A stretch of 64,000 nucleotides of DNA, from positions 1 through 64,000 of IMG/VR virus record IMGVR_UViG_3300029959_000812; one strand, given 5' to 3'. The notes beneath the pieces are model-generated. The model made no database searches. It saw only the letters and a program-made list of their open reading frames with translations, and was not told where the DNA came from. A program made the position numbers and the translations under genes. Of this stretch, positions 860 to 39,479 are shown piece after piece. The stretch's first letter is position 1. Each line of letters begins with the position of its first letter. This DNA comes from a virus.

Positions 860-862
860 TTG

Positions 863-5029: not shown

Positions 5030-5036
5030 AAACGTC

Positions 5037-5061: not shown

Positions 5062-5083
5062 ATAAAACTAATAGGTGATTTAA

Positions 5084-5770: not shown

Positions 5771-5794
5771 CGTAAGCATCCGAGAGAATAAACC

Positions 5795-10272: not shown

Positions 10273-10280
10273 GGTTTAAG

Positions 10281-20753: not shown

Positions 20754-23700
20754 ATGGCAATGGGTGAAAGTCCTAGCGGCGTAGTAATCTGGCAGGGCCA
20801 GGCAATGCCATTATCACAGTATAACGCATCGACCGGGCAGAATGTCGGCGGCGTAAACGTAGTAAGCGGAACGCCTGCCGGTACGACTTCGGGCAGTACA
20901 GTTGTTACGACTCCTAGGCCGTCGTCTATTGATATTAACGAAGTCAAATCCAGATATGCCGGCTCATACGGCGGAATAGCCGCGAACTATGCGACAGAAA
21001 GCGACCTATATATTGCTGCACGTCAATGGTACGGAGATTCGGTTAATGTGACCGGTAGCCTTCCACGGTCGATTGTAGGCGGCGGAAGCGGCAGAGTCGT
21101 TGATAATGCTCCCGGATTCAGCCAGGGCCAGATAACAAACGTTGTGGTCGGCCCCAATAATATTGGAGTATACTTTAATAGTCCAGGCGCGGATATTGGC
21201 AGCGGCGCGTCTTTTTCAAACTTATCACCAAACGATCAGCAGGCAGTAATAAACTATGCTGCCGCTAATAACATCAATATATATAATCGGTCAACTTATA
21301 CGCCGGTAAACCCGGTTTTTACTGTTAACGGTCCTGTCGTAGTTATTCCTGATGTTGGCGGCGACTCGTTTGAGGCTTCGAGGGCGTACCTGTCACAGTT
21401 TCCTAGTGGAACGCCTGTTAAGCTTGAAAACAGTCCTACAATCGCTTTTGTCTGGCAGGGCGGTTTGATTAACAGCGGCGGCAGATATTATACGGGCTAT
21501 GGGCCTGCTACTCCGGGTAATGTGCCGGGCGGTATCACTGGTACAATTACCGGAGTAGTTCAAGGACCAGCAGATACGTATAACGGGCCTGTAATGGTCG
21601 GCAATGAAGGGTATGGACAGGGTAATATTATGGCAGTACAGCCCACAGCACCGCAACAGATTACGGCAAACCCGTTCGGCGGACTCCCCGGAGCGGTCAC
21701 GGCTCAACAGATGAGCACCGGGCGCGGCGGAGCAGCTCCATTATCTAATTACGTTCCTACAAGCGTAACGGCACACCCGATGGACACTGGTTCTTACGGC
21801 AGTAGGGGTGTGGCTATGCTATCCGTGGTCCCGTATCTAGGATCTATCCAAAATGCTGCAACTGGATTTGCGGCTGGTGTCGGTTCGGCTATTGGGGGAT
21901 TATGGAATATTATCCCGACAAATCAAGACCAGATGATGAGAGATCAAGCCAATGCTGCAAACGCTGCACAGGGGGCGGCATGGGCGGCAAGTCCAGATTC
22001 TTTTAATCAATATTCACAAAACCGGAGTAAATACAACATGCCGGTAGATCCGGCTAGCCAGGGATACACTCCTGTTAAAGTCGATGTAAAAACTTGGAAT
22101 GAAGGCAACACCACCTATGAGCAATACCGGACCATCTATCTAAATCCTTCGAATAGCATGGGCGTGATCAGAGAAGTGCGGCCAGACGATCAAAAAATGT
22201 ATACTGTTGGCGGGTATAATGGCGGCGTAGTATCGTTTAGCGGGCCAATCGAAAGCGCAGCACTAGGATATTATAATTATCTTGGCGACGCGCAGCAAAT
22301 GGCAACACAAAAATTAGGCAATCTTGCAATTTTCCCTAACATCGTAATGGCTACCGCACAGAGCTTTGCAGCAGTGCCATTAATGACTAGTGCATTTGTG
22401 CAAGGCGCCCCGGTTATGCGGAGTCTACAGTTAGAGGTTAACCCGTCAGACGTTAAACAGTACAATACTGCTGATAGCATAATGCAAAGCGGTTTTGTCG
22501 GGGCCGTCACTCTTGGATTAGTAGCATATACTCCTACTTTAAAGCAGATGCAGGCCGATTTCCCTAATTTAAGGACGAGTCCGAATTATCAGACATTAAC
22601 CAGCAAAGCTTTTACTATAAACGAGTTTAGCACTTTAGGACAGGTGAAAACTGCTGTCGTAAATGCTAATGAGTTCAGCACATTAGGACAGGTGCGCGAC
22701 GTATCTATAAGTGCAGCATACCGTGTTAACAATGCTGCAATCGGTGTCGTACAAACTGTTGATACTGCTAAATCCGTGTTAAACCCGTTTGACAATCAGG
22801 GAAGCCAAATAAGATATAATAAAGCTTGGGATAGGTTTCAGACAAGCAGCGAAGGATGGAAGGAATATAACACAATATCGACGGCACAGCAAAAAATAGC
22901 TACCGAAGAATTGTTTACGGGAAGGCCGAATTTAGGCTATGAACGATGGATGAACGCGAATCCTGCAAGCGATAGTTATACGTTTGGCTATGCATTAAAG
23001 ACAGAAACGCCACCGGGCGGAACTATCGGGGCATATTCTTATGGTCCTGAAATGCCATTGTCCGGCCCCGGCATCGAGTCGATGCCTCCTAGTAAAGCGT
23101 GGATGTGGGTTCCTGAAAGATATCTGACCGAGTTTACAAACGAAAACAATCCTACCGTGGTCCGACAGGTTGTCCCGATGGGCTATGAAGATTTCTTACG
23201 GATCGGCTATGAGAACAAGATGCCTGTCGAATCCAGATTTATACCAAGATACGAACAATCTCCGACATATAAAGGGGCCTCACCCATTGATGATTACTGG
23301 GTGCGTATAGGTAGTAGACTTGATGATGCGTTTCCGGTAGAACCTGCTGTAAAACCCTACAGTTTTATCACAGACATTATAGATACTAATCGCAGGATGT
23401 TTTCGGATACTCGCGGCGAATCTACGGTAATTCCGGGCAGTTCATCATATTATCGTAATGTTCCAACAGCGTCAGAATTAGATCGTATCGGGTTCCAGGA
23501 TGAGATCGGGTTAGGTACAAGAAAATCGATGTTCAGCCCATCCGATGAGATCGACGATTTCACAAGACCTAGATACGGCCCAAAAAATATTTTTGACGAC
23601 GAATCAAGGGCAGTAAGAATAGGATATACCGATGCTGACGGATTCATATCAAAGGGATTGTACGGCGGAGTAGTAGGGTTTTTGTCGCAGGCAAACGGAT

Positions 23701-24119
23701 TGCCAAAATTAGCGGCTATAAACGATTATACACCATATTCCATGAATATGGATCTAACGCAAGCAGGCGATGAAGCGTTTAGCATATCCTACCCTATAGA
23801 TGCCACAGGTACAATTACAGATACCAATACAATACCGGATAATAGTGTAAATACGTATATTTACGAGCCATATGTTTCACGCCCGTTTAATAACCAAGAT
23901 CCAGAGCCCAGCAGGATTCCCCGCGATTTTGGTATTCCACCAGTATGGTCCCCGTCGATGGATAATTCCGCGTCAGCTCCGCGTACACCTGCAAGTTTTG
24001 ACGAGTTTGGCCAGGCATATGTTAACTTTGACTTCGACGACGGGTATAACTTTATGAATTCTGCAAAACAGCCTAGGCGCAAGTATAATACAAAAAAGGG
24101 TAAGGCGAAGAAGAGATGA
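20754..24119 (+). CDS. Large protein A1 (1121 aa), paralog of A2; virion/adhesin candidate
   Basis: The first ~345 aa and the last ~25 aa (FGQAYVNFDFDDGYNFM…KKGKAKKR) are shared with 27198..30413. The centre is unrelated. Confidence 0.85.
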   Translation: MAMGESPSGVVIWQGQAMPLSQYNASTGQNVGGVNVVSGTPAGTTSGSTVVTTPRPSSIDINEVKSRYAGSYGGIAANYATESDLYIAARQWYGDSVNVTGSLPRSIVGGGSGRVVDNAPGFSQGQITNVVVGPNNIGVYFNSPGADIGSGASFSNLSPNDQQAVINYAAANNINIYNRSTYTPVNPVFTVNGPVVVIPDVGGDSFEASRAYLSQFPSGTPVKLENSPTIAFVWQGGLINSGGRYYTGYGPATPGNVPGGITGTITGVVQGPADTYNGPVMVGNEGYGQGNIMAVQPTAPQQITANPFGGLPGAVTAQQMSTGRGGAAPLSNYVPTSVTAHPMDTGSYGSRGVAMLSVVPYLGSIQNAATGFAAGVGSAIGGLWNIIPTNQDQMMRDQANAANAAQGAAWAASPDSFNQYSQNRSKYNMPVDPASQGYTPVKVDVKTWNEGNTTYEQYRTIYLNPSNSMGVIREVRPDDQKMYTVGGYNGGVVSFSGPIESAALGYYNYLGDAQQMATQKLGNLAIFPNIVMATAQSFAAVPLMTSAFVQGAPVMRSLQLEVNPSDVKQYNTADSIMQSGFVGAVTLGLVAYTPTLKQMQADFPNLRTSPNYQTLTSKAFTINEFSTLGQVKTAVVNANEFSTLGQVRDVSISAAYRVNNAAIGVVQTVDTAKSVLNPFDNQGSQIRYNKAWDRFQTSSEGWKEYNTISTAQQKIATEELFTGRPNLGYERWMNANPASDSYTFGYALKTETPPGGTIGAYSYGPEMPLSGPGIESMPPSKAWMWVPERYLTEFTNENNPTVVRQVVPMGYEDFLRIGYENKMPVESRFIPRYEQSPTYKGASPIDDYWVRIGSRLDDAFPVEPAVKPYSFITDIIDTNRRMFSDTRGESTVIPGSSSYYRNVPTASELDRIGFQDEIGLGTRKSMFSPSDEIDDFTRPRYGPKNIFDDESRAVRIGYTDADGFISKGLYGGVVGFLSQANGLPKLAAINDYTPYSMNMDLTQAGDEAFSISYPIDATGTITDTNTIPDNSVNTYIYEPYVSRPFNNQDPEPSRIPRDFGIPPVWSPSMDNSASAPRTPASFDEFGQAYVNFDFDDGYNFMNSAKQPRRKYNTKKGKAKKR

Positions 24120-26782
24120 GCCATAAAAATTTTTATGTTAGCACTATTGTATTAGCCATATTATTTTTATTGTTATGTACCGTAACAACAAACGCGGCAT
24201 CCCCGGCGAATTATAGTCTTAGCCAATCGGCTTATGACGTTTATGATAATACTGGCAGTCTTTCGGTCTCTGTCACGGCGAGTATGACGGCTAATCCTGG
24301 TTATGAGGATGGGCTTACCGGTTGGGCGTTGTTTGGTTCAGGGGCTAGTGCTAGTTCCTCTGTTGTACATAGCGGCATTGGAAGCGCATATGTTGTAAGC
24401 ACTACGGGCAATTTTATTGGTGCGTCGCAGCGTGTTTTGGCTACGGGCGGCGAAACGTTAATGTTAGACGCTTATTGTTATCCGACAGCATATGTTGGTG
24501 CTAATAGCGTTTATGTTCAAATATATCAGTATAATGCTACTGGTGGCATAATTGGCACGTATACTATCGCCGCGCCTTCGACATTGAACCAGTGGCATGA
24601 GTTAACCGGGACATTTACAACAAATGCCAATACTGTAAATGTACTGGTTAGCATAATTACGTATGATGGCAGCATAGCATATTTTGACGATGTAAAACTA
24701 ATACCCGTCTCTTATACGGGCAGCGTAGACTATGCCACAGCAGACAGCACGGCTATGGCCGGGTATGATTATACTGCGACTAGTGGCACGTTGAGTTTTG
24801 CAGCGGGCGAAACAAGCAAGACTTTTAGCGTACCAATAATTTACGGTAATGCTTATCATGGTGATAGATTTTTTAGTGTTGCTTTATCCAGTCCTGTTAA
24901 TGGTACTCTTTCGAGTCCATCTACTGCATATGTTGATATTATAGATACTCATTCGCAAGCTCATGCAATACCTGCTGGGGGGTATTTGTATGCATATGTG
25001 ACCGATTATAATAGTAATATGGTAAGTGTTTTAGATCCGGCGAATAATAATCAAAAAATTACTGATATTAAGGTTAATAGCAATCCTATTAACGCTATTT
25101 TAAATCCTACCGGTACTATGTTAGCTATATCGTATAACAAATATAAATATGTTGATATTTATAGTACGATAGATTTTACTCTGATCAAGCAAATATTAAT
25201 AACTGACAGTACAGGGCCGTATGACGTTAGCATTGCTTTTAATGGCGACGGGACAAAACTATATGTTTCTAATGCTAATGATAATAAAGTCTCTATAATT
25301 GATGTTAACAGCGGCACTATTATAACAACCACAACCGCGATTACTAACCCCGAATCTATCATATATTACAAGACTTCTAACTATGTATTTATAGCTGACC
25401 GCCTTAACGATGTTGTCTATAAATTAGACCCCAATACCTTGAATATTATTGGTAGTGTTGGTAGTATAGACGGCCCTAGCGATCTTGCCATAGATTATAC
25501 AAATTCGAGATTATACGCTAGTGGTTATGGCGGCAAGATTTATAGGATGACTTTATCATCTACAAGTGTATTCGCGCTTACCCACACGTATAATTCAGGA
25601 TATTCGGCACCGCTGGACAAAATAGCGATCAACAACACCGGATATATTTTTGTTAGTCTCCAGGCGTCAGATAAGGTAACGGTACTTAACAGCGCAGGCA
25701 CTTCAAAGGGAAATTTTTCAATGCCATCCGACAGCGGTCCTTTTGGAATAGCCTACAACGTTTATAATGATTCGTTGTATGTTTGTGGCGCTTTCGATAA
25801 TACGATGTATATTTTAAATCCTGTAACTGGCGCGATTATCCAAAGCGGATATATCGGTAATGAACCTTATCGCGTAATCATAGGCACCCAAGCAACAAGG
25901 GCAGTACAGTTAACACAGTTTAAACTTACTACGCTTGGCTATCTCGGTCTCGATGGTGTCCCGGCAGCAGTATATCTTAATGGAAATCTGTTGTTCACCG
26001 GGGTAACTGATGGTAGCGGGGTATTTGCCTGTTATCTTAATCCGACTTCGACTTATCAGGTAGCTTTTAACAGTCCTGCTAATGGTGTTAATGCTTCGTA
26101 TACGATCACGCCGATAAACTTGTATTATCAGTTTGATCAGCCGTTCCTGGACGTTGTCGGCGGTCAGTTTTCTAATCTTTTAGGTCCGATTGTGACGCCT
26201 GACAGTTTTGGTAATCAGAGCCAGGTATACTATCCGCAGAGCGCCGATTATAATCAAGTTAGCAATACCGGGTACATCAACGGCACGTACATCGATTACA
26301 GCGGCGCTACTACCGCTTTATCTTTCAAACTGTACGGGAACAATTCGACCTTCGGCGGATCTCCAACACTGATCGAGACACAGACAGCCGGGGCCGGTGG
26401 GGACTATAACTTTACTGTACTCGATGCGGGCGGAAATAGCTATTATGTAGAGATCACCGCAACACAGAGCGACGGCAACACGAAAAAGTATTATCCGCAA
26501 GGTGTAGGATTCCCCGGACAAATAGTCTTAGCCGAAACAGGAATACCTTTGGTTTATTTGTTTTGGATAGGACTTTGTCCGCCGCTGTTCATCTTTGGGG
26601 CTGGGGCTGTCACACGTCGTGGATATTTAGGTCTAGTAGGGACGATATTTGCCGGTTTTATCGGATTTTATTGCGGTTGGTATCGCATATATATCCCCGA
26701 TCTGCTCTTCGGTTCTGCGTTTGTAGCATGTTTTTTGCTTTCGCTCGGTATGATAATCGTTGAGCACGAAAAATACAAATAA
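24116..26782 (+). CDS. Surface protein B1: signal peptide, CBM4_9-like domain, Calx-beta, YVTN-type beta-propeller, Ig-like region, C-terminal TM helices
   Basis: NPGYEDGLTGW…FDDVKL (CBM-like). DYATADSTAMAGYDYTATSGTLSFAAGETSKTF (Calx-beta). Repeated YVxxxxxNxVSVID-type blades. ATGA overlap with A1. Confidence 0.85.
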   Translation: MSHKNFYVSTIVLAILFLLLCTVTTNAASPANYSLSQSAYDVYDNTGSLSVSVTASMTANPGYEDGLTGWALFGSGASASSSVVHSGIGSAYVVSTTGNFIGASQRVLATGGETLMLDAYCYPTAYVGANSVYVQIYQYNATGGIIGTYTIAAPSTLNQWHELTGTFTTNANTVNVLVSIITYDGSIAYFDDVKLIPVSYTGSVDYATADSTAMAGYDYTATSGTLSFAAGETSKTFSVPIIYGNAYHGDRFFSVALSSPVNGTLSSPSTAYVDIIDTHSQAHAIPAGGYLYAYVTDYNSNMVSVLDPANNNQKITDIKVNSNPINAILNPTGTMLAISYNKYKYVDIYSTIDFTLIKQILITDSTGPYDVSIAFNGDGTKLYVSNANDNKVSIIDVNSGTIITTTTAITNPESIIYYKTSNYVFIADRLNDVVYKLDPNTLNIIGSVGSIDGPSDLAIDYTNSRLYASGYGGKIYRMTLSSTSVFALTHTYNSGYSAPLDKIAINNTGYIFVSLQASDKVTVLNSAGTSKGNFSMPSDSGPFGIAYNVYNDSLYVCGAFDNTMYILNPVTGAIIQSGYIGNEPYRVIIGTQATRAVQLTQFKLTTLGYLGLDGVPAAVYLNGNLLFTGVTDGSGVFACYLNPTSTYQVAFNSPANGVNASYTITPINLYYQFDQPFLDVVGGQFSNLLGPIVTPDSFGNQSQVYYPQSADYNQVSNTGYINGTYIDYSGATTALSFKLYGNNSTFGGSPTLIETQTAGAGGDYNFTVLDAGGNSYYVEITATQSDGNTKKYYPQGVGFPGQIVLAETGIPLVYLFWIGLCPPLFIFGAGAVTRRGYLGLVGTIFAGFIGFYCGWYRIYIPDLLFGSAFVACFLLSLGMIIVEHEKYK

Positions 26783-26886: not shown

Positions 26887-27198
26887 ATGTCTAAACTCTA
26901 TTGCGAAAAACACAGTATTAAATTAATGACGGCTGCCGGTTTTATTTCACTTTATCGGCCACCGTCGCAGCGTAGCAAATTAGGCGCGTATAAAAGTCTT
27001 GTCGCTCTATGTGCCGGTATTCCGAGGGCGGAAATTCAAAAATTGATAGATTACCCTGTCGAAAATAACAAAATTATTATCCCGGACGATATATTTATTA
27101 GTAAGTTTTTTAAGGAATACTCGCGTCGAACCGGGGTAAATTACGGCATGATCGACAATTCCGAGTTAACAATATCAGGATCAGGAGTGTGCGAATAA
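26887..27198 (+). CDS. Hypothetical 103-aa protein
   Basis: ORF track. TAATG overlap with the A2 start. Confidence 0.5.
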   Translation: MSKLYCEKHSIKLMTAAGFISLYRPPSQRSKLGAYKSLVALCAGIPRAEIQKLIDYPVENNKIIIPDDIFISKFFKEYSRRTGVNYGMIDNSELTISGSGVCE

Positions 27199-30100
27199 TG
27201 GCGATGGGCGACAGTCCTAGCGGCGTAGTAATCTGGCAGGGACAGGCAATGCCATTATCGCAGTATAACGCTTCTACAGGCCAGAATGTCGGCGGGGTAA
27301 ACGTTGTAACGGGCGCGCCTTCCGGTACGACTTCGGGCGGATCAGTTGTTACTACTTTTAGGCCGTCGTCTATTGATATTAACGAAGTCAGATCTCGTTA
27401 TGCCGGCTCATACGGCGGAATAGCTGCTAGCTATGCGACAGAAAGCGATTTGTACATGGCTGCACGGCAATGGTACGGTAACAGTGTAAACGTGACCGGT
27501 AGCCTTCCACAGTCGATTGTAGGCGGCGGAAGCGGCAGAGTCGTTGATAATGCCCCAGGGTTCAGCCAGGGCCAGATATCTAACGTCGTGGTCGGCCCTA
27601 ATAACATCGGAGTCTTCTTTAATAGTCCGGGCGCTGATATTGGCAGCGGCGCGTCTTTTTCAAACCTATCCGCAATGGACCAACAGGCAGTTATAAATTA
27701 TGCTGCCGCTAATAACATCAACATATATAACCGGTCCGCGTATACACCGGTAAATCCTGTTTTTACTGTTAACGGTCCTGTCGTCGTTATTCCTGATATT
27801 GGCGGGGATTCCTTTGAGGCTTCGAGGGCTTATCTATCACAATTTCCGAGCGGAACGCCTGTTAAGCTTGAAAACAGTCCCACGATTGCTTTTGTGTGGC
27901 AGGGCGGCATGATTAATAGCGCAGGTCAATACTATACGGGTTACGGTCCGGCTACTCCGGGCAATGTGCCAGGGGGCATTACGGGTACAATTACCGGGGT
28001 GGTGCAGGGACCGCCCGATACTTATAGCGGCCCCGTAATGGTCAGCAATGAAGGGTATGGACAGGGTAATATTATGGTCGTACAGCCGACAGCACCGCAA
28101 CAGATTACGGCAAACCCGTTCGGCGGACTCCCTGGAGCGGTCACGGCTCAACAGATGAGCACCGGACGCGGCGGAACAGCACCGTTATCTAATTACGTGC
28201 CTACAAGCGTAACGGCGCACCCGATGGACGCGGTATCTTATGGCGGCGGCGGTGTCGTGCCGTTTATGTCTGCCGGGTTTTCGTTGCCGAAATATACTGA
28301 TCAGACTATGACGGCATCTATGGCCGGTTGGCAGGGCGTACAAAACTCTGTTAACAAAGTGCCCTCAAACACGTATAATTGGGGCGGATATACTGCCGTT
28401 GATGTTATCGGGGCGCGTGGACTCGTAGACTTTGGGCAGGGCGTATCCTCATATTTTGAAACCGTCACTATGAGCGTTGAAAACGTTGTCGGAAGCGTCC
28501 CGTTTTTTGGCGGCCCCTTAAAAGCCGGAGTCGGCTTTGTAGGCTCTGGCATCGGCACCGTTGCGGGCGGTATCCCAACGTTGTTTGGCGTGGCAGCTCT
28601 CGGCGGCGAAGCACTAGGCGAACAGATACAGCAGCAATATGCGAAGGGCAACAATTTCCCCGTGTTTCGTGGCGCCGTCGATTGGATGACGGGGAATTAT
28701 AATGTCGTCGTAGGCAATTCCGGGCCGGGCGTCGTCGGGAGCATGGGGATCATGGCCGGGCGTCAGGCAGATAGGATCATGCAAGATCCCTGGAGCGGAT
28801 TTGGCGAGACTGCCGGTATGCTCGCGCCCGCCGTTATAGCTGGTGGCAAGTTTAGCGCAAAAATGGGCTGGACCGGTGGTCCCGGCAGCGCGGTTATTAG
28901 CAGGATAAGCGGGACTGCTGGCGATAGCATGTTAACCGGCGTTATGTCGCGGGGCATGTTCGACGATATTAAAATAAGCGTTAAAGCGGCGTATACAGAG
29001 TTTAGGAACCCGGAATACCGGGGCGTTGTAAGTGCCGGTGTTGACACTATCAAGACTGCGGACAATATCGGTTATCGAAACGTCGTAGCGCCCGACTATT
29101 CTTTATCGTCTAATATTCCGAAGGACATTTACCCGGTGCTTGATAATGTGCTTAATTCTGTGCCTAACGAGTTGAACCGGGCTTATGGTGGCATTACGCA
29201 ATCACAATTCAAGTATTTCGAGCCGCGCATTACTAGCGACCTTGATATTCTCGGTAGGAGTGCGCCGGACGTGGCTTTAAGGGCAGTCGAACAGCTTAAC
29301 TATAGGTTCCCCAGCGAAGCTTACGCGGATGGCACACAGGTATATTTCAGAGGTGCGAAAATCCTTGATATTCACGACGTTGTAAATCCGGGCGAAGGCG
29401 GCGGCATGACTTTCAAAGTATTGCCGACGATCAAGACGAGCCAGATCTACAGGGCGGGCGTAGACTATGCGACCGGGATAAGCAGCGAAGATTTGACCTA
29501 TGGCCTAATGCGAAAATCACAGGCGGTAATCGAGGATACGATCAACCCGGCGAAAAACTACAGATTAGGCAAAGACCTTTACGACTACGTATCATACAGC
29601 CGAGAACTATCTATGCAAGATAGTATTCTCGGAGATCGGCTTAACGTGAATGTCGATAAGATGTTAAGACAAAACTTTCCCTATGAGCTGGAATCGGGAG
29701 TTGTCACGACGAAAAGCGGGCTTGAAATCTACAAGATGATGCAAGAAAAATACGCTCCCACAAACATCCGGGAAGGCCCGTTAGACGTTTACGTATCAAG
29801 TACGCCTAAAAATAGTGGCGTAGTAACAATATTCGATAACGCTGGCGAAGCGGGCATTTTCTCACAATATGACGTATCACCGGGCACGAGCCGATATAGC
29901 TCGATGTATGAAAACATATTCGACAACAGCTATACTAATACGCCCAGGTCTTACAACGAACAGTCATATGAAAGCCCCTCGATTTTCGGAAGCTATTTGC
30001 CAAGAATAGAAATGCCGAGCTATGGCATATCACCGAATAATAACATATTTGAGCCTTCATATGGTTCGTCTTACGGCCCCTATGATCCGCCTTCGATACC

Positions 30101-30413
30101 GTCACCGATACCATATAGCCCGCCGTACAGCCCACCTTATAGCCCATCCATCGGGCCGTATGATCCGCCTTCGATACCGTCAGTAATACCATATAGCCCG
30201 CCTTATAGCCCGTATGAGCAGCCGTATGATAATTCAAAATATTATGACGGAAACGGAAGCGATAACGGATCATACAAACCAGATAGTATCGACTATGACT
30301 TTTTCGGCCAGGCATATGTTAACTTTGATTTCGACGACGGCTATAACTTCATGGGACCGCGCAGACAGACGCGCAAAAAGGGAAAAAGCAAGAAAGGAGG
30401 ACACAAGAAATGA
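27198..30413 (+). CDS. Large protein A2 (1071 aa from ATG 27198), paralog of A1
   Basis: Same conserved N-terminus, C-terminal motif and basic tail as A1. The start is chosen by homology with the A1 start context. Confidence 0.85.
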   Translation: MAMGDSPSGVVIWQGQAMPLSQYNASTGQNVGGVNVVTGAPSGTTSGGSVVTTFRPSSIDINEVRSRYAGSYGGIAASYATESDLYMAARQWYGNSVNVTGSLPQSIVGGGSGRVVDNAPGFSQGQISNVVVGPNNIGVFFNSPGADIGSGASFSNLSAMDQQAVINYAAANNINIYNRSAYTPVNPVFTVNGPVVVIPDIGGDSFEASRAYLSQFPSGTPVKLENSPTIAFVWQGGMINSAGQYYTGYGPATPGNVPGGITGTITGVVQGPPDTYSGPVMVSNEGYGQGNIMVVQPTAPQQITANPFGGLPGAVTAQQMSTGRGGTAPLSNYVPTSVTAHPMDAVSYGGGGVVPFMSAGFSLPKYTDQTMTASMAGWQGVQNSVNKVPSNTYNWGGYTAVDVIGARGLVDFGQGVSSYFETVTMSVENVVGSVPFFGGPLKAGVGFVGSGIGTVAGGIPTLFGVAALGGEALGEQIQQQYAKGNNFPVFRGAVDWMTGNYNVVVGNSGPGVVGSMGIMAGRQADRIMQDPWSGFGETAGMLAPAVIAGGKFSAKMGWTGGPGSAVISRISGTAGDSMLTGVMSRGMFDDIKISVKAAYTEFRNPEYRGVVSAGVDTIKTADNIGYRNVVAPDYSLSSNIPKDIYPVLDNVLNSVPNELNRAYGGITQSQFKYFEPRITSDLDILGRSAPDVALRAVEQLNYRFPSEAYADGTQVYFRGAKILDIHDVVNPGEGGGMTFKVLPTIKTSQIYRAGVDYATGISSEDLTYGLMRKSQAVIEDTINPAKNYRLGKDLYDYVSYSRELSMQDSILGDRLNVNVDKMLRQNFPYELESGVVTTKSGLEIYKMMQEKYAPTNIREGPLDVYVSSTPKNSGVVTIFDNAGEAGIFSQYDVSPGTSRYSSMYENIFDNSYTNTPRSYNEQSYESPSIFGSYLPRIEMPSYGISPNNNIFEPSYGSSYGPYDPPSIPSPIPYSPPYSPPYSPSIGPYDPPSIPSVIPYSPPYSPYEQPYDNSKYYDGNGSDNGSYKPDSIDYDFFGQAYVNFDFDDGYNFMGPRRQTRKKGKSKKGGHKK
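30081..30215 (+). repeat. 78-bp in-frame tandem duplication inside A2 (PYDPPSIPSxIPYSPPYSP)
   Basis: TATGATCCGCCTTCGATACCGTCA…ATACCATATAGCCCGCC occurs at 30081 and 30159. Confidence 0.8.
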
Positions 30414-30798: not shown

Positions 30799-31146
30799 AT
30801 GGAAGACGGGGAAAACTTTAGACGTTTTGAACGAAAAAAGGCGGATGTTAAAACACTTATTTTAGCTTGCCCTATTCCTGTTACTAAGAGAGAAAAACAA
30901 TTATATATTAACGCTATGGCTAGGTGTTGCGGTTTAACGTTAAATGAACTTTATATTTTACTTAAAGATACCGCTGTTATAGGTAACATCTCCGACGTGG
31001 ACCCGGCATTATTGAAAAAGTTTACCGAATTATACCAATACAAGCTGATGAACGACCGACCGCTTAATTGGCGTTTATCTAATTCGACAAAGCCAGTTAT
31101 AGCCACGTCTAGTCTTTTTTGTTGTTATCGGTGGTCTCTATGGTGA
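30799..31146 (+). CDS. Hypothetical 115-aa protein
   Basis: ATG at 30799 within the track ORF. Its 3' end overlaps the convergent AbrB-like gene. Confidence 0.4.
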   Translation: MEDGENFRRFERKKADVKTLILACPIPVTKREKQLYINAMARCCGLTLNELYILLKDTAVIGNISDVDPALLKKFTELYQYKLMNDRPLNWRLSNSTKPVIATSSLFCCYRWSLW

Positions 31147-31252
31147 CTTGTACCCAATCGCCGGGCTTTAATTTTAAATAGTCCACGATGTTTTTTGGTA
31201 CTGTGATCCGGTTTTTGTATTTGTTTATTTGAGCTTTGAAACTTTCTTTCAT
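31109..31252 (-). CDS. AbrB/SpoVT-type DNA-binding protein (47 aa)
   Basis: Manually translated MKESFKAQINKYKNRITVPKNIVDYLKLKPGDWVQVTIETTDNNKKD. The RITVPKxIxxxLxLKPGDxV core is typical of SpoVT-AbrB domains. Confidence 0.65.
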   Translation of the reverse strand: MKESFKAQINKYKNRITVPKNIVDYLKLKPGDWVQVTIETTDNNKKD

Positions 31253-31255: not shown

Positions 31256-31320
31256 TGGTACTTTGTACCATAATTTATTTATAGCTTGCTATCCAATCGC
31301 TTATATGGTACAAAGTACCA
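31256..31320. promoter_or_regulatory. Divergent promoter region with two TGGTAC-N3-GTACCA palindromes
   Basis: TGGTACTTTGTACCA at 31256-31270 and TGGTACAAAGTACCA at 31306-31320 flank the AT-rich TATA-like TTTATTTATAG. Confidence 0.5.
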
Positions 31321-31615: not shown

Positions 31616-31774
31616 CTTTAACAAAAACGTCTTTTTCTAATTTTCATAGGGTTTCTATCCTGTGATTATCTACAGGCTTTCAAATTTGACCGTAGAGCGA
31701 CTTTTAAGGCATGGGTAATAGGAGAAGTACCCACAGACCTACAATTTAAATTTGTATTAAGTAGAATATTCAGT

Positions 31775-32106
31775 ATTTCATCCCTGCGCGCGCGGGCGTG
31801 AGGCTGTCAGCCAGGCAGATAAGCTTACCAGTGTAATTTCATCCCTGCGCGCGCGGGCGTGAGTAACGGCACTGTTAAGGTTACAGAGACATCGACATTT
31901 CATCCCTGCGCGCGCGGGCGTGAGGAAATCGGCTTGAAGCCGATCATCTAAACTAGAATTTCATCCCTGCGCGCGCGGGCGTGAGGTTTCCATTCGTAGG
32001 CTCTGGATTACGGGGGCTATTTCATCCCTGCGCGCGCGGGCGTGAGGGGAATCAAAGGGAACTAATTTCCCCTTGAAAGTAGTCTCCCTGCGCGCGCGGG
32101 CGCTAA
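31775..32106. CRISPR. Cas-less mini-CRISPR array: 5 perfect 28-nt repeats, 1 degenerate repeat, 5 spacers (33/33/33/33/32 nt)
   Basis: Repeat ATTTCATCCCTGCGCGCGCGGGCGTGAG at 31775, 31836, 31897, 31958 and 32019. Degenerate copy at 32079-32106. All spacers are unique. Confidence 0.9.
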
Positions 32107-32126
32107 TATGGTAAAAATGTTAGACT

Positions 32127-32930
32127 CTAATCATCATCGTAATAATGTCCAGGGCAATCTTTGATGTTTGCTCTCCCATCGCATAATGCTTGTATCATTT
32201 GTGTCTTGTCATGGTGCCATATGGGTATGCGAGTGCGGCAATTCTGGCACTCATCCGCGATGCCTTCAACTTTCGGCTGTTCCGGTTCGACGGGTTTCTT
32301 TTTAGATTTTGATTGTCTTTTCTTTTTGGGCTTCTCTATTTGCTCTTTGTTAGAGTCTAATTCGTCTATTTTGTCCCAAACGATTTTATTATTTTCATAA
32401 TGGACATTTGAGACAATCCCATCACGTCTAACCATAAATGAGCCGTCAGAGCTTTCAAACTCGATTTTATTATTCTTGTCGGCTTCGATTGCTTCCTTTA
32501 ATATCATAGTTCTCTTCTTAAGCCTAATATCATCAATTGCACAATATACGAGCCTATATACTGTGTCATCATGCGGGAAAGTCGTATCCATATCAAGAGG
32601 ATTATCGCACATGCCGGAAGCCATGACGTACATAGCATCTGTTGAAATATCCGCTGCGATCTGGTCAGCATCTATTTTTGCTATAAGTTCTTTTGACCGC
32701 TGTTCAGTGTATTTTATAAACTGTTCGCGCTTTTCCGTGTCGGTTAATTCGCGCCCATGTACGAGCGATGCTATGCGGTATTGTTTAAATTCGTCAACCT
32801 CTGCCTGGAGCCGTCTGTTTTCTATTGTAAGTCGTTCAACCTCTGCCTGGAGCTGTTGACTAAGCGGAAGTTCCCCGGCTCTTCGACGCTTCATATATTC
32901 TTTTTGATATGCTGTCTTATCGAATGACAT
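32127..32930 (-). CDS. Coiled-coil protein with a C-terminal Cys/His zinc-binding motif
   Basis: 267 aa with LQAEVERLTIENRRLQAEV repeats and CQNC…H..…C…C.GH at the C-terminus. The stop lies 21 nt from the CRISPR array. Confidence 0.7.
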   Translation of the reverse strand: MSFDKTAYQKEYMKRRRAGELPLSQQLQAEVERLTIENRRLQAEVDEFKQYRIASLVHGRELTDTEKREQFIKYTEQRSKELIAKIDADQIAADISTDAMYVMASGMCDNPLDMDTTFPHDDTVYRLVYCAIDDIRLKKRTMILKEAIEADKNNKIEFESSDGSFMVRRDGIVSNVHYENNKIVWDKIDELDSNKEQIEKPKKKRQSKSKKKPVEPEQPKVEGIADECQNCRTRIPIWHHDKTQMIQALCDGRANIKDCPGHYYDDD

Positions 32931-32992
32931 TAGAGTCTAACCTCATACTATTATGTTAGAGTCTAACTATAAATAGATTGTGAGAGTCTAAC
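32930..32992 (-). promoter_or_regulatory. Promoter/operator cluster: three TTAGAGTCTAAC boxes around a TATA-like CTATAAATAG
   Basis: Boxes at 32930-32941, 32956-32967 and 32982-32992. Further copies lie at 32350-32360 and, inverted, at 32120-32130. Confidence 0.5.
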
Positions 32993-33309: not shown

Positions 33310-34602
33310 ATGCCTAAGATCGATAGGACTGACCGGTTCCATAAAACGGCTGACCAGTGGGAAACGTACATTGAAACTAAATTTCAATCTGCATTGAAAA
33401 GCAATACTATCACAAAAGACGATTATACGCTTATTCGTGCCTTTATTGAAGCGAAAAAGGGTAAGAACACCGAGTATATGACGCTATATCATATCCTCAA
33501 TTTTATTGTACTATGGCGTACTTTTATGAAAGTACCTTACCGTAAAGCTATTTTAAATGACTTCTTATCGGCAAAAGTAGATATGGAAAATTCGACTAAC
33601 AAAACCGGTCAACCGCTTTATTCTAAAACCTATCAGAAAGTTATGGTTGTAACTGTAAAAGGGTTTTTCAGATGGGGCTTAAAAGAATCGAAAATAAAAA
33701 CGTTAAACAAATGGTCAAAAATTAGCGAAGCGCAAATCAGGGATGAGATTAAACCGGTTAAATGCAAGCTAAAAAGCAAAAAGGCCGACGACATCATGAA
33801 AGCCGATGAAATATCAAGGCTTATCGATGCTGCCGACAATTCGCGGGATAGATGCATGATGTCGCTTCAATACGAGTGCGCTTTAAGAGCTGTTGATCTT
33901 GGGCGGCTTCGATGGAGCGACATTACACAGATAAGCGAAAGAGAATCTTCAATAGTCGTTAATAGCAAGACAGATTACGAAAGGCACATATCCACTGTAC
34001 TATTTAACGGATACCTGAATACCTGGAAACGTGACGCTACAAACGCAAGCGATAAGAACGGGTTCGTATTTCTCACGTATGGGACGTGTCAACAGATAAC
34101 ACTTGATGTCGTGCGCGACGTGGTTAAGAACGCTGCAAAGCGGGCGGGCATTACTGACCGGCAAGCGACTCCGCACACGTTGAGACACAGCCGGATCACC
34201 TATTGGTTACAGCATGACGTATCTATCGCCAAAATATGCCTTATGGCATGGGGTGTCGAGTATTCGCCGATGATTAAGACGTATGCCCATTTAGGCAACG
34301 ATGAGACAGCAAAAGAACAGCGCAGGCTTGCAGGCATCAAAGAATCGGAGATCGTGCAGGTTGGCACAATCGAGCTTAAACTATGCCCGGTTTGCGGACT
34401 GAACAGCCCGCCCGGGAAAGGCTTTTGCGGCGGGTGCGGTTCACCGCTTACAGAGGCCGCTATAAACGCTCGCGAACAGGCTAAAAACGACGCTATAAAC
34501 TCTAAAAGCATTACTACGGCAGAAAAGTTTGTTAACGCTCTATTATCGAGCAATATATCAGAGGATAAGCTCTTAGCTCTTATCGAAGGGCTCAAAAAAT
34601 AG
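33310..34602 (+). CDS. Tyrosine recombinase/integrase with a C-terminal zinc ribbon
   Basis: ALRAVDLGRLRW (Arg I), HTLRHSRITYW (HxxR), KTYAHL (Tyr), then CPVCG…CGGCG. Confidence 0.9.
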   Translation: MPKIDRTDRFHKTADQWETYIETKFQSALKSNTITKDDYTLIRAFIEAKKGKNTEYMTLYHILNFIVLWRTFMKVPYRKAILNDFLSAKVDMENSTNKTGQPLYSKTYQKVMVVTVKGFFRWGLKESKIKTLNKWSKISEAQIRDEIKPVKCKLKSKKADDIMKADEISRLIDAADNSRDRCMMSLQYECALRAVDLGRLRWSDITQISERESSIVVNSKTDYERHISTVLFNGYLNTWKRDATNASDKNGFVFLTYGTCQQITLDVVRDVVKNAAKRAGITDRQATPHTLRHSRITYWLQHDVSIAKICLMAWGVEYSPMIKTYAHLGNDETAKEQRRLAGIKESEIVQVGTIELKLCPVCGLNSPPGKGFCGGCGSPLTEAAINAREQAKNDAINSKSITTAEKFVNALLSSNISEDKLLALIEGLKK

Positions 34603-35600: not shown

Positions 35601-35816
35601 ATGCAGGACTTTTATAGAAATGCTGTCTGCTGTCAGATAAGAATGTCTCGCGGCACAACACGGACCATTATTGCCAAAACCCTCCGCATGAGCCTTAATC
35701 GGGTTGATCGTTACGTTGGTTATCTAAAATATTATAAGAAGATTACCGAGGACAAAGACGGGATACTTTATCCAGCGCCAGAAACGCGCCGGACCTGCGG
35801 AGGTCGGGCCGTATGA
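35601..35816 (+). CDS. HTH/winged-helix-like protein
   Basis: TRTIIAKTLRMSLNRVDRYVGYL. Confidence 0.5.
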   Translation: MQDFYRNAVCCQIRMSRGTTRTIIAKTLRMSLNRVDRYVGYLKYYKKITEDKDGILYPAPETRRTCGGRAV

Positions 35817-36775
35817 CCTCACCAGAACAGATGAACAATGCCGCTGTTAAGACTTTACACAATGGCATTAAACTATTTCCCGTCGAAGGCATCCATAACG
35901 GATACTGCACCTGTGGGCGAAAGGTTAACGAGTGCACACAGAAAAGCGGGAAGGTCCAGGCGGGAAAACATCCAATATTAAAACTTGGAAGCTGGACACG
36001 TCTTAGCACCAATAACCCGGAGAATTTACTTGCATATCTGTTTGAAGTGCCGGGCCGAAATCTTGCTTTCCATGCTGGAGCTAATAACGCAATTATAACA
36101 GACTTCGACGACGAGGAAGGGTGTAAAGCGTTTGAAAAACTATTTGCCGAACATCCCGAATGGTTCGATACTCCAGCAGAGAAAAGCGGCAAAGGCTATC
36201 ACGTATTGCACCGTCAGACCGTCGAACCAGTAGAGGCTTTTAACACAGTGTACGGCGAGGTTCGCACCGGCGACATGTATTGTGTTACTGCACCGAGCAA
36301 CCATTACAGCGGGGCAGAATATCGGGCACTCGAAGGCCATGCACTATATGAGAAGCCCCTATTAGAAATGCCGGGCGCATTTCTGGCTTATCTTAACAGT
36401 ATAAGGAAATCTAAGCCTGTTAACGTCGAACAGACAACGATAAAGCCGATAATTGGGAACAATCACGATAGGATATTTTCAAAGTATGATCTTCCGTCTT
36501 GGCTTGTCTCTCAATTGAAAAAAGGAAGTACCGCAAATGATAGAAGCGGGGCATTATTCCATGAAGCTTGTACTTTAATCGCCTATAGCGTGGATGACGC
36601 GGATATTTATTACCTGTTGGAATATTCGCCAAACAACAAATTCAACGGAAGACATGACGAACAGAAGCGCATAAACGCCACTATAAACGAGGCTAAATCG
36701 TCTGTAGGTAAGAAGAGACAGGATAGGATACAAGAGCGTAAAAGGGCTTTGTCGTCGCTCAAGGGGGCTTTCTAA
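35813..36775 (+). CDS. Archaeo-eukaryotic primase superfamily prim-pol
   Basis: AEP motif I IITDFDDEEG, motif II SGKGYHVLH, and an N-terminal LFPV…GKHP pattern like bifunctional prim-pol domains. Confidence 0.8.
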   Translation: MTSPEQMNNAAVKTLHNGIKLFPVEGIHNGYCTCGRKVNECTQKSGKVQAGKHPILKLGSWTRLSTNNPENLLAYLFEVPGRNLAFHAGANNAIITDFDDEEGCKAFEKLFAEHPEWFDTPAEKSGKGYHVLHRQTVEPVEAFNTVYGEVRTGDMYCVTAPSNHYSGAEYRALEGHALYEKPLLEMPGAFLAYLNSIRKSKPVNVEQTTIKPIIGNNHDRIFSKYDLPSWLVSQLKKGSTANDRSGALFHEACTLIAYSVDDADIYYLLEYSPNNKFNGRHDEQKRINATINEAKSSVGKKRQDRIQERKRALSSLKGAF

Positions 36776-38811
36776 TGGAAGCCTATGCAGTTGTACCCGA
36801 GAACATCCTCAAGCAAGGTCGAGATGATGACACGATCCGAAGCATGTACGAAAAAAAGTATAATGAAATATTGCCTGCCGACATGGATATTGAATCCATT
36901 ATCAAAAACGGTCACATGTCAAAGGATAATCTCATTAGCCTTATCAAAGATGCTAAGACATCGACATTGACAGCTATAAGTAATCTGTTAGCGGGCCGTA
37001 CTCCTGTCGATCTGGAAGAATATAGCGCGGACGAATTTAAAACATTCAAAAAATATATGGGCGTAAGAAAATGGCTTAACGGATACCTGGAAATCGCCAA
37101 AGAAACAGAAAAAAATGGCAACATGGCGGCCAATATGAGTAATGAAAAATTTAAACTCATATTTGCTGTCACGGAAAAGATGGGTAAAGACGTAGATGAT
37201 GCTGACAGTATTCCTGATGCCGCATACATTAGCGAACTTATGAATCAAGACGAATTTGTTATGGATACTGACAATGAATATTATGTAATTGTCAATGACA
37301 TAAAGGGTATACGGCGGATTATCAGCATTTACAGCGAGGACTACAAAGCGCAACTATGTAACAGGTTTGAAACTATATTCGGTAAGCCCTCCGGGGAATC
37401 CGCTATAAAAAACGCGATACGTGCCAGGAGAGCGAAGATAACAAAGAGAATTAACTTGTTCGTCCGTGTCGCTGGGGAATCGATGTATACGAAAGACGCG
37501 AAGGTATACTATGATTTGAAGGATGGCCGGGCGGTCCAAATTGTGCCCGACGAAAAAGGCGATGGCGTCAGCATTGTACCCAGGCCGTTAATCTTTAAAG
37601 ACTTCGGATGTATGGGCGAACAGATCGAACCGGATCTAACCGCAAAAATTGACGACATCAAAGAATTATACCGGATATTAGATATGCGTGTACTGCCGAC
37701 CGACGAAATAGAAACGGATAACAAAGGCAGGATATTAACCGACGAAAAGAGCATGGATAAACTGTTTGCTCGTAACGAGTATACGGACCGGGTAAAAAAT
37801 TTCTTGGTATGCTGGATGCACTATAACCTTATGCCATTCAATACCGATAAGCCCGGTCTCGAGATCGACGGGCCACCGGGCAGCGGCAAAACAAGTCTCG
37901 TAAAAAAGATTGTTGGACTTGTTGATCCTTTGAACAGCGAAGATTTAGCAGCTCTCGAAGAAAACCGCGAGAACCTGATACTTTCATTGTCACAGCGTCT
38001 TATACCGGCATTTGACAACGTGAGTTATCTTAGCAGGATGCAAAGCGACGTATTTTGCCAGGCGGCAACAGGTATTACTTTTCAGCGACGGGTAAGATTT
38101 ACAGATAACGATATGGCATTAAACACTATACGCCGGTCGTGTATTCTTAACGGTGTAGGCAACCCGTTATCCATGAATGATGTTGGAGAAAGATACGCTT
38201 CGATTAAGCTTAGACCATTAGGAGAAAACGAAGGGAAACCGCTTAACGAGATCTGGAGAGATTACAACGAAAAGAAGTCTTTGATACTTGGGGCTATGTT
38301 CAAAATCGTTAGCAGGACGTTGTATACTATCGCCGCCGAAAAGTTGACCACAAAGAAAGATCACCGGATGTTAGACTTTGTTAGAATTTGCCGGGTGGTC
38401 AGCGAGACAATAACGAAGAACAGCGCAGACGATTTCGAGAACATATACAACGAATTACAGGACGATCAAAGCTCGGAGATACTTGCCAATGATATTGTGG
38501 CTCAACTATTAATAAACCGTTACGAGCATCTTAAACCTGGAGAAAGCACAAAACAGATGAAGCTTACGGACCTAAAAACAGAGCTGATATTTCAGCATCT
38601 TGGTGAAATCGGCGCTAATGGAAAGCACATTGCTGATGAAGTTGAACGCGAATTAACTAATCTGTCTCCTAAAACGTTTGGCGATAGGTTAGCTATGAAT
38701 ATTAAAGACCTTCAAAAAATAGGCTATAAGGTGTCGTTGTTAAAGCCCAGGGCTAAAACCGGGCAATATTCGTCCCGTTGGGTATCAATCAAAAAGTTAG
38801 ACGTTAATTAA
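36775..38811 (+). CDS. SF3 (D5/P4-like) replicative helicase / NTPase
   Basis: Walker A EIDGPPGSGKTS, Walker B-like LIPAFDNV. Translationally coupled to the prim-pol. Confidence 0.8.
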   Translation: MEAYAVVPENILKQGRDDDTIRSMYEKKYNEILPADMDIESIIKNGHMSKDNLISLIKDAKTSTLTAISNLLAGRTPVDLEEYSADEFKTFKKYMGVRKWLNGYLEIAKETEKNGNMAANMSNEKFKLIFAVTEKMGKDVDDADSIPDAAYISELMNQDEFVMDTDNEYYVIVNDIKGIRRIISIYSEDYKAQLCNRFETIFGKPSGESAIKNAIRARRAKITKRINLFVRVAGESMYTKDAKVYYDLKDGRAVQIVPDEKGDGVSIVPRPLIFKDFGCMGEQIEPDLTAKIDDIKELYRILDMRVLPTDEIETDNKGRILTDEKSMDKLFARNEYTDRVKNFLVCWMHYNLMPFNTDKPGLEIDGPPGSGKTSLVKKIVGLVDPLNSEDLAALEENRENLILSLSQRLIPAFDNVSYLSRMQSDVFCQAATGITFQRRVRFTDNDMALNTIRRSCILNGVGNPLSMNDVGERYASIKLRPLGENEGKPLNEIWRDYNEKKSLILGAMFKIVSRTLYTIAAEKLTTKKDHRMLDFVRICRVVSETITKNSADDFENIYNELQDDQSSEILANDIVAQLLINRYEHLKPGESTKQMKLTDLKTELIFQHLGEIGANGKHIADEVERELTNLSPKTFGDRLAMNIKDLQKIGYKVSLLKPRAKTGQYSSRWVSIKKLDVN

Positions 38812-38833: not shown

Positions 38834-39186
38834 GTTGTGGGTTTTTTGTGGATGATTCTTTTTTAATTTAGGCATATATTACTATATTTTTCTAATAGTA
38901 GTAGTTAATAAAATAATAATAGTTGTGGGTAAGTTGTGGGTAAGTTGTGGGTAATGAAATTAGAAAATACTATTTATATATGCCTAAATTAAAAAAAAAG
39001 TTGTGGGTATTGTGGGTTTTATTGTGGTATCGTTCCAAGGGGGTAAATACTATTTTTATTAGAATTAATTAGAATATTTTAAAAATGTTATACCCCTTCT
39101 AAAAGTCTTTGATTTTACCCACAAAATCCACAAACCCACAACTTTTAAGGCGAGGCTATTGGATTTATATTAAAAAACACCCACAA
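38834..39186. repeat. Iteron field (candidate replication origin): >=7 forward and 4 reverse copies of the TTGTGGGT core, a 3x11-nt tandem (38921-38953), and a 38-nt imperfect inverted repeat (38859-38896 / 38959-38996)
   Basis: Read directly from the sequence. Forward cores at 38834, 38922, 38933, 38944, 39000 and 39010 (plus partial copies). Reverse ACCCACAA cores at 39117, 39134 and 39179, with ATCCACAA at 39127. Confidence 0.6.
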
Positions 39187-39479
39187 TTATATTAATAAAC
39201 TAATTTATTAAATCATAATCGTATACAATAAATTATCTATCTTATATATACTAAAATCTATTTTTATATGTTATAATCAAATAGTGTTAACTCATTTTGT
39301 AAACTTTGTAAGTCATTATTAGTAGTGTTAAAGTATAGCACGGTCTAATAGTAGACTATTAGCCTGGAGATCCGGCAGCTCTCAAAATTTTTTCAAATTC
39401 GAGAAAGTGAGAAAAATTGATGTGTCTTATCAACATAATTAATCTAAAATGTAGAATAAACCTTTAAATTATATGTTCC

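Follow-up and report, generated by a model that had tools for sequence, protein, structure and literature searches.

Short CRISPR arrays without cas genes have been reported on mobile elements, and a candidate of this kind was predicted at positions 31775-32106 of the 64,000-nt stretch of DNA analysed here (the window). The locus raises the question of whether this is a genuine CRISPR array that truly lacks cas genes and, if so, from which strand it would be read, where its spacers come from and what it could do for the element that carries it.

A CRISPR array on a circular element without cas genes

The five-spacer array at 31775-32106 is a genuine CRISPR array. A repeat search of the window identified five identical plus-strand copies of the 28-mer ATTTCATCCCTGCGCGCGCGGGCGTGAG, with start-to-start steps of 61, 61, 61 and 61 nt and a final step of 60 nt leading to a sixth copy, GTAGTCTCCCTGCGCGCGCGGGCGCTAA, that is identical to ATTTCATCCCTGCGCGCGCGGGCGTGAG in 20 of the 28 positions. 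In this terminal copy, the 17-nt palindromic core CCCTGCGCGCGCGGGCG is exact, and the changes are confined to 8 of the 11 flanking positions, affecting both flanks. The five spacers, of 33, 33, 33, 33 and 32 nt, are all unique. With up to three mismatches allowed, the 28-mer occurs exactly five times in the window and not once in 100 dinucleotide shuffles; the repeat and spacer layout of the original prediction is therefore confirmed, against a chance expectation of zero copies. Direct repeats that are near-identical, number at least three and measure 23-50 nt, separated by unique spacers of near-constant length, are generic properties of CRISPR arrays, and an origin of spacers in foreign or mobile DNA, the remaining property, is seen in spacer 1 (27/33 nt, in frame; see below). 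The dimensions of the array are those of type I-E, with a repeat in the 28-29-nt range, a G+C-rich stem-loop, spacers of 32-33 nt and a 61-nt unit. An Rfam search of the array returned no CRISPR-DR family match, and no occurrence of the repeat strings was found in the literature.

The regions on the two sides of the array differ in composition and coding content (Table 1). The last 150 nt of the left flank are 66% A+T, compared to 58% in the right flank. Within the putative leader on the left, a T5 run (31632-31636) follows the upstream gene, and a TATA-like box, TTTAAAT, is located at 31745-31751, with its end 24 nt before repeat 1. Similar boxes precede other genes of the element, and this one could be the promoter of the array. 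The 267-aa gene on the right encodes a protein with an N-terminal coiled coil and a C-terminal Cys/His cluster, for which no family was found in Pfam, PHROGs, NCBIfam or PADLOC; a T5 run on this gene's own strand (an A-run on the plus strand, 32113-32117) lies between its stop codon and the array. The neighbours named originally, this gene, the tyrosine integrase and the Prim-Pol/helicase pair, are all correct, and less than 7 kb separates the array from the Prim-Pol and helicase genes and an origin-like region. No convincing att-like direct repeats were detected around the integrase module, and scans for sigma-70 promoters and intrinsic terminators showed no enrichment and were uninformative on the domain of the host.

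Table 1. Coordinates of the array components, the flanking region and selected genes of the element (window positions)
Feature	Position	Strand	Details
Putative leader	31616-31774	+	159-160 bp, non-coding, A+T-rich
Five identical 28-nt repeats	31775-31802, 31836-31863, 31897-31924, 31958-31985, 32019-32046	+	repeat search
Spacers S1, S2, S3, S4	31803-31835, 31864-31896, 31925-31957, 31986-32018	+	
Spacer S5	32047-32078	+	32 nt
Degenerate terminal repeat	32079-32106	+	20/28 identical, 17-nt core intact
267-aa gene	32127-32930	-	convergent on the array; stop 20 nt from the degenerate repeat
Tyrosine integrase	33310-34602	+	Pfam Phage_integrase, E=1.5e-18; best NCBIfam match XerA_Arch, below cut-off
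Prim-Pol	35813-36775	+	Pfam Prim-Pol, E=1.7e-13
678-aa helicase-like protein	36775-38811	+	tblastn matches to phage helicase/primase genes
Gins23/Sld5-like gene, 122 aa	52809-53177	-	NCBIfam Gins23, E=1.2e-6 (28.5 bits vs cut-off 120); Pfam Sld5, E=0.0022; both below curated cut-offs

The carrier of the array is a closed circle of about 65,639 bp (~65.6 kb). A 48.7-kb contig from JGI 3300027373 runs from position 51574 to position 64000 of the window, continues through 1,639 extra bp and re-enters the window at positions 1-6336, with 100% identity. The longest contig that encodes the proteins of the element is 65,766 bp, that is, 64,000 + 1,639 + 127, which fits a terminal assembly overlap on a circle. 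The 1,639-bp gap contains four open reading frames (ORFs) of 43-130 aa, no copy of the repeat and no spacer match. We annotated the genes of the element with Pfam, PHROGs, NCBIfam and PADLOC, none of which yielded a match to a Cas family for any ORF tested; for the small ORFs, the precomputed Pfam column is empty. The circle is thus closed by 1,639 bp of tiny ORFs without a Cas match, which refutes the possibility, raised with the original prediction, that cas genes lie just outside the window and bears out its central claim of a Cas-less array on a mobile element.

The gene repertoire of the circle includes two tyrosine integrases and a serine resolvase, which are integration or resolution genes, and a set of replication-type genes encoding a Prim-Pol, a helicase-like protein, an initiator-type AAA+ protein and a Gins23/Sld5-like protein. 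In addition, the element encodes a SemiSWEET transporter, a small cluster of methyltransferase, glycosyltransferase and B12-radical-SAM genes, several very large proteins with PKD, Calx-beta and CBM domains, and many tiny ORFs. Sequence searches of the PDB with the 678-, 328-, 122- and 267-aa proteins produced nothing significant. The carrier is a circular extrachromosomal element, a plasmid or a virus, in which profile searches recognised no capsid, portal or terminase gene. The array region or its flanks are present at 100% identity in JGI 3300001881, JGI 3300027373, ENA ERZ27247094 and Logan SRR6214011. These four assemblies are identical and may share one source sample, and they are not treated as independent observations; turnover of spacers was not apparent among them.

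Polarity of the array

According to the original prediction, the orientation signals of the array contradict each other, with a type I-E-like layout of the repeat on the minus strand set against a leader-like left flank. To calibrate these signals, we used a two-copy degenerate pattern derived from this repeat; it picked out, in GTDB genomes, more than 120 bacterial arrays whose period is 61 nt, along with seven metagenome loci. All these calibrators, which belong to the I-E family, were read in the repeat orientation that corresponds to the plus strand of the present array. In this orientation, the more degenerate end repeat is on the left in 34 calibrators and on the right in 5, with 16 ties, so that 34 of the 39 informative arrays have their degenerate copy at the trailer; in the present array, it is on the right. 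A near-constant extra base beside the repeat, the PAM-derived base of E. coli-type I-E arrays, is found on the left in 57 of 64 calibrators and never on the right, whereas here the left base is variable and the right one is G in four of five cases (p=0.008). The more A+T-rich 150-nt flank is on the right in 35 of 43 calibrators, compared to the left, non-coding flank here. An antisense hairpin more stable by at least 4 kcal/mol was observed in none of 44 calibrators, whereas the plus-strand hairpin of this array is the more stable one by 4.4 kcal/mol (-11.3 vs -6.9 kcal/mol), G.U pairs on the plus strand becoming A.C on the minus strand. All four features are therefore reversed with respect to what is expected if the minus strand is the I-E sense, and all four favour plus-strand polarity.

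Similarity of the repeat to known I-E repeats, judged by simple alignment, does not discriminate between the strands. The Streptomyces-type I-E repeat is matched in 22 of 28 positions by the minus strand and in 19 by the plus strand, the E. coli I-E repeat is matched nearly equally (19 vs 18), and the experimentally oriented CRISPR4 repeat of S. thermophilus, GTTTTTCCCGCACACGCGGGGGTGATCC, is matched in 20 positions by the plus strand and in 16 by the minus strand. Folding of the whole array does not decide the strand either, with the repeats pairing with one another. The conflict is mostly resolved: repeat similarity is ambiguous, the four calibrated features favour the plus strand, and little of the contradiction is real. 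The part of the earlier argument that relied on the minus-strand I-E layout proved unreliable, as either orientation aligns about equally well, whereas the leader and degenerate-end signals point to the plus strand. The residual doubt comes from the nucleotides that follow the stem, which number 6-7 on the plus strand, one short of the usual 8-nt handle, and exactly 8, a neat tail, on the minus strand. On balance, we put the odds in favour of the plus strand at roughly three to one. Near-palindromic I-E-like repeats whose sequence does not settle the strand can in practice be oriented by considering together which side carries the degenerate terminal repeat, which side carries the constant base, how the flanks differ in composition and which strand forms the more stable hairpin.

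Origins of the spacers and relatives of the element

An ungapped scan of the element showed that spacer 1 matches positions 52821-52853 on the minus strand in 27 of 33 nt. The maximum in 1,000 shuffles was 24 of 33, and 6.5e-6 matches of this quality are expected over the window and the five spacers combined. The match is in frame, near the 3' end of the 122-aa Gins23-like gene, with six mismatches; spacer 1 encodes the peptide AVSQADKLTSV, and the gene of the element encodes AVGQANTLTSI. An in-frame match of 27/33 against a shuffle maximum of 24 indicates that spacer 1 was copied from a relative of the element, in which the Gins23-like gene has diverged from the carrier's version. In the plus-sense reading, the homologous site, on the strand identical to the spacer, is preceded by AAAA and has G as its first base, this site being a diverged homologue and not the actual target. 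The AlphaFold2 model of the Gins23-like protein is weak (pLDDT 73, pTM 0.40), and the Foldseek search with it was uninformative.

For spacer 4, a relationship was detectable at the peptide level only: the opposite-strand translation, APVIQSLRME, resembles APVMRSLQLE, encoded in frame in the 1121-aa gene at 22406-22438 on the minus strand. With a shuffle p of ~0.005 per peptide and ~20 peptides tested, homology of spacer 4 to this gene is suggestive only. The best peptide match of spacer 5 is in a paralogous 1074-aa protein, 34 alignment columns away from the spacer-4 match; at p ~0.3, it is not significant alone, and we regard it, too, as no more than suggestive.

Self-matching spacers, which the original prediction expected to change the interpretation of the locus, are not present: there is no perfect or near-perfect match to any spacer in the window or the 1.6-kb gap, the spacer-1 match being the closest. 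There was also no match to the spacers in the contig of one distant relative. No exact protospacers were detected, with zero matches in IMG/VR for 22-mers of spacers 2, 3 and 4, and a search with the whole array against PLSDB and INPHARED returned nothing significant.

The same rarity characterizes the proteins of the element. Queries with the Gins23-like and 1121-aa proteins found no close relatives of the element in IMG/VR. In an index of 5.8 billion proteins, the Gins23-like protein retrieved itself and a single homologue with 46% identity, the C-terminus of which does not encode spacer 1. An HMMER search of 1.84 billion representatives with the 1121-aa protein detected three distant homologues, none of them with the spacer-4 or spacer-5 peptide. 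With only three other clusters among these representatives, the large proteins of the element seem to come from a very poorly sampled lineage.

Searches for the repeat itself gave a similar picture. Exact 23-25-mers of the repeat had zero matches among GTDB species genomes, IMG/VR and JGI metagenome contigs, and PLSDB, INPHARED and the protein index likewise yielded no array built on it; such absence proves little. Arrays miscalled as genes were sought with a pseudo-ORF profile, built from the 41-aa translations that any array with this repeat would encode, which yielded no candidates in the 5.8-billion-protein index. Single-copy degenerate patterns produced only one-off chance matches in IMG/VR, with no arrays, and two-copy degenerate patterns retrieved many bacterial I-E arrays, the closest repeat differing at 7 of 28 positions.

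The methanogen-like gene repertoire that had been proposed for the element was not demonstrated. The archaeal signals are all sub-threshold, namely the Gins23 match and the two integrases, for both of which XerA_Arch is the best family at scores far below the cut-off, and they hint weakly at an archaeal host. The nearest homologues of the Prim-Pol and the helicase in a phage database, which is dominated by bacterial phages, come from bacterial phages, with ~25% identity. Type I-E systems are mainly bacterial and rare in archaea, and an archaeal host, if true, would make this array more unusual for the type. The repeat can be used as a probe: finding it in a cas-linked array from the source samples would reveal which host and which Cas system are involved.

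A proposed role in competition between elements

The reading that we favour, with a probability of about 0.6, is that this Cas-less array of type I-E design allows a ~65.6-kb circular element to use the Cas proteins of its host against competitor elements. A promoter of its own, in the A+T-rich leader on the left, would drive plus-strand transcription of the array; a Cas6e-like enzyme of the host would cut the pre-crRNA at the repeat hairpins; and the five resulting crRNAs would be loaded into the host Cascade. Related elements would be the source of the spacers, that of spacer 1 being a diverged version of the Gins23-like replication gene, and the infected cell would destroy incoming competitors. 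The carrier would be spared because its own homologous site has six mismatches. If the first G of each spacer is PAM-derived as in E. coli, this site would be flanked by AAG and its seed would be intact, and escape from self-targeting would then depend on the register. Given that the searches turned up neither a host array with this repeat nor an exact protospacer or a close relative, use by host Cas proteins is something that we infer, along with transcription, processing and the exclusion effect. The host Cas1-Cas2 may have assembled the array on the element itself, or recombination may have transferred it there from a host array; the latter route would result in the same anatomy and the same functional outcome.

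The anatomy of the locus, with its cas-free circle, promoter-like leader, intact repeats, full-length spacers, relative-derived spacer and mutated own site, fits a published class of Cas-less arrays with which mobile elements turn host Cas proteins against related elements, and whose defining feature is a repeat identical to that of a host array (PMC6858448, PMC11656645). Mini-CRISPR arrays were described in the Saccharolobus portogloboviruses SPV1 and SPV2 (Medvedeva et al. 2019; PMC6858448), where the carriers possess the orthologous locus with point mutations that prevent self-targeting (PMC6858448). The present array is similar to those of SPV1 and SPV2 in that it belongs to a circular element without cas genes, has a promoter-like leader and contains a relative-derived spacer, with the orthologous site of the carrier mutated. 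The SPV1 and SPV2 arrays differ in having one or two spacers, repeats and leaders that are demonstrably those of host arrays, and observed reciprocal targeting, whereas the array described here has five spacers and a type I-E design, and no host array, target or competitor was found for it; a mutated own site is seen for spacer 1 (6 mismatches), and a competitor target was not found in the searches made. Both the location on a virus or plasmid and the lack of cas genes are as in mini-arrays borne by mobile elements, but the published definition specifies 1-2 spacers (PMC6858448, PMC11656645), compared to five here; judging from its structure, the array would work like a mini-array but is longer than this definition allows.

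The original prediction was right that Cas-less mini-arrays are known from Sulfolobales viruses, but they are not confined to these: such arrays are also found in the Bathyarchaeia 'Chiyouviridae' and in Altiarchaeum viruses (PMC10541130, PMC8324899), and they have been reported for many phages (PMC11656645). The claim of novelty is not supported; the phenomenon was already described in 2019 and is seen here on an unusually obscure carrier. As in the Chiyouviridae and Altiarchaeum viruses, a short Cas-less array is located on an uncultivated metagenomic genome; the Chiyouvirus arrays contain three spacers each, and one of them has a repeat identical to that of the host, the same virus encoding a Cas2-like protein. 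In contrast, neither a host link nor a Cas-like protein was found for the element analysed here, and no capsid gene was recognised.

Among type I-E systems, CRISPR4 of S. thermophilus DGCC7710 combines a 28-nt repeat and 33-nt spacers with a 61-nt crRNA, a 7-nt 5' handle and AA upstream of the protospacers (PMC3890593, Table 1). On the plus reading, our array shares with it the 28-nt repeat, the 33-nt spacer, the 61-nt unit and 20 of 28 repeat positions, as well as a G+C-rich 5-bp stem with a tetraloop and an AA flank at the single informative site, which is a diverged homologue; it differs in that no cas3-cse1-cse2-cas7-cas5-cas6e-cas1-cas2 operon is adjacent and the hairpin is located 2 nt further 3' in the repeat. 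By analogy, single repeat units of phages and RNA anti-CRISPRs, or Racrs (PMC10651486, PMC11656645), could also be compared with this locus, being CRISPR repeats on mobile elements that lack cas genes and depend on host Cas. Racrs are solitary repeats, devoid of full-length acquired spacers, that poison Cas complexes, whereas this locus consists of five complete repeat-spacer units with acquired spacers of 32-33 nt.

The same function could in principle be served by crRNAs from the minus strand, with the repeat read as CTCACGCCCGCGCGCGCAGGGATGAAAT and transcription supplied by read-through from the 267-aa gene or by a promoter in its 3' end. The minus reading ends in GGGATGAA, like the more than 120 bacterial I-E arrays, gives the best alignment to the Streptomyces-type repeat and leaves a handle of canonical length after the stem. 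We nevertheless regard it as unlikely, given that all four calibrated architecture features oppose it, that the stem would include a C.A mismatch with the attendant loss of stability, that the 5' handle of the first crRNA would come from the degenerate repeat, and that the T5 run between the stop of the gene and the array is a likely archaeal termination signal, leaving ~10 nt for a promoter. Less probable still is a passive relic, a fragment of a host array gained by recombination and of no function for the element. Such a fragment would be compatible with the absence of spacer turnover among identical assemblies and with a terminal copy that retains only the palindromic core, as a recombination junction might; furthermore, host arrays naturally hold spacers against relatives of infecting elements, which would also explain spacer 1. 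But the five perfect repeats and full-length spacers show no sign of decay, the promoter-like box is at the expected distance, and the carrier itself is not targeted by any spacer, which suggests selection.

We consider it very improbable that the array is an RNA decoy against the host CRISPR system, the transcripts of which would titrate Cas6 or Cascade or, if the host sense is minus, pair in antisense with the repeats of host pre-crRNA. Inhibition of Cas proteins by repeat mimics is well established for phages (PMC10651486, PMC11656645), and the orientation in which the repeat resembles I-E repeats is the reverse of that indicated by the polarity signals of the array itself; yet the known Racrs are solitary, not sets of five canonical units with full-length spacers, and the present array includes at least one spacer taken from a relative of the element. 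In the antisense version, an inverted array with host crRNA sense on the minus strand (GGGATGAA end, 8-nt tail) and an element promoter on the plus strand would generate an RNA that pairs with every host pre-crRNA repeat. Its premise is weak, the similarity of the repeat being orientation-ambiguous, and we would give this version just as little credence; to our knowledge, an antisense RNA anti-CRISPR built from an inverted array has not been described so far. Finally, we rejected an ordinary chromosomal CRISPR locus with a cas operon just outside the window and the possibility that the repeats are not CRISPR but replication iterons or regulatory elements near the origin, each of which has almost no probability left. 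The proximity of the array to the Prim-Pol and helicase genes and the origin-like region would be in keeping with such explanations, but the window closes on itself without cas genes, and iterons do not show a 61-nt period with unique spacers of constant length, nor an in-frame spacer that comes from the homologue of a distant gene.

If competition by means of host Cas proteins is the right reading, CRISPR-mediated conflict between elements extends to an array of type I-E style and to a poorly sampled lineage of elements. The spacers would then be a record of the genes that are hit in rivals, among them one replication gene and, for two further spacers, perhaps the variable region of a large protein to which no function has been assigned.

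Repeats and gene junctions at the array and its spacer-1 site

Upstream of the leader of the CRISPR array, we detected a perfect 17-nt inverted repeat (TGGTACTTTGTACCATA / TATGGTACAAAGTACCA), which is centred between two divergent ORFs, one a 47-aa AbrB/SpoVT-like ORF and the other a 109-aa ORF that precedes the leader; this repeat is likely an operator. The 267-aa gene that adjoins the array is associated with a near-palindromic 11-mer, TTAGA(C/G)TCTAA. All five copies of this 11-mer in the 64 kb are at this gene, with three upstream, one within the gene and one across the stop codon, the last of these 14 nt from the degenerate terminal repeat of the array. Five copies were reached in none of 100 shuffles. 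A regulator specific to this locus may use the 11-mer as its operator.

Palindromes are also present within the array itself: spacers 3 and 5 contain ATCGGCTT-G-AAGCCGAT and AAGGGAA...TTCCCCTT, respectively, and both form hairpins on either strand in folds of the whole array.

The site homologous to spacer 1, in the Gins23-like gene, is located 9 nt upstream of the junction with a SemiSWEET-type transporter gene that overlaps the Gins23-like stop by 4 nt. The match of this transporter to NCBIfam SemiSWEET_2 (E=1e-19, 70.2 bits) falls slightly under the cut-off of 80.

Coordinates of the features discussed in this part (repeat arms separated by a slash)
Feature	Position	Strand
Serine resolvase gene	2721-3320	
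Nuclease-like/tyrosine recombinase fusion gene	3317-4156	
Modification gene cluster	7449-10919	
Large-protein family genes	20754-24119; 27189-30413	
Paralogous large genes	20754-26782 vs 27189-30413 and 41210-43894	
17-kb segment	24358-41491	
AbrB/SpoVT-like ORF	31109-31252	minus
17-nt inverted repeat	31256-31272 / 31304-31320	
Spacer 3	31925-31957	
Spacer 5	32047-32078	
11-mer copies	32120-32130, 32350-32360, 32930-32940, 32956-32966, 32981-32991	
Origin-like region	38856-39300	
41-nt inverted repeat	38856-38896 / 38959-38999	
Tandem repeats of the origin-like region	38921-38954	
SemiSWEET-type gene	52483-52812	
SemiSWEET-type plus Gins23-like genes	52483-53177	

Origin-like region, recombination and modification genes

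Directly downstream of the helicase-like gene lies an A+T-rich, origin-like region that includes a 41-nt inverted repeat with 85% complementary arms, three tandem copies of AGTTGTGGGTA, and additional A+T-rich direct repeats. The element also carries a second recombination module, which consists of two overlapping genes, one for a serine resolvase and the other for a T5orf172/MUG113 nuclease-like domain fused to a tyrosine recombinase. Cellular-type modification genes form a cluster that encodes a class I methyltransferase, a GT4 glycosyltransferase, a B12-binding radical SAM enzyme (the top NCBIfam match is BchE-like, far under the cut-off) and a rhamnosyl O-methyltransferase-like protein; this cluster may have a role in surface glycan modification.

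Paralogous large genes and the segment between them

The large genes of the element include two paralogous pairs. The 1121-aa and 1074-aa proteins share about 90% identity in the first 300 residues and about 20% beyond, and the genes for the 888-aa and 894-aa Calx-beta/CBM proteins are 85-96% identical in nucleotide sequence across the aligned stretches. The proteins of the large-protein family terminate in Pro/Tyr/Ser-rich repeats (PPYSPPYSP) and, after these, a tail that is short and strongly basic. This family is very rare, with just three further clusters among 1.84 billion representative proteins, and comparable basic tails are present in all three.

The array lies, together with the integrase and replication genes, on a 17-kb segment flanked by the 888-aa and 894-aa genes. 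In two assemblies, the segment is a separate contig, with breaks at the repeats of the 888-aa and 894-aa genes; it could be a smaller, co-integrated element, but a search for att sites gave no convincing ones.
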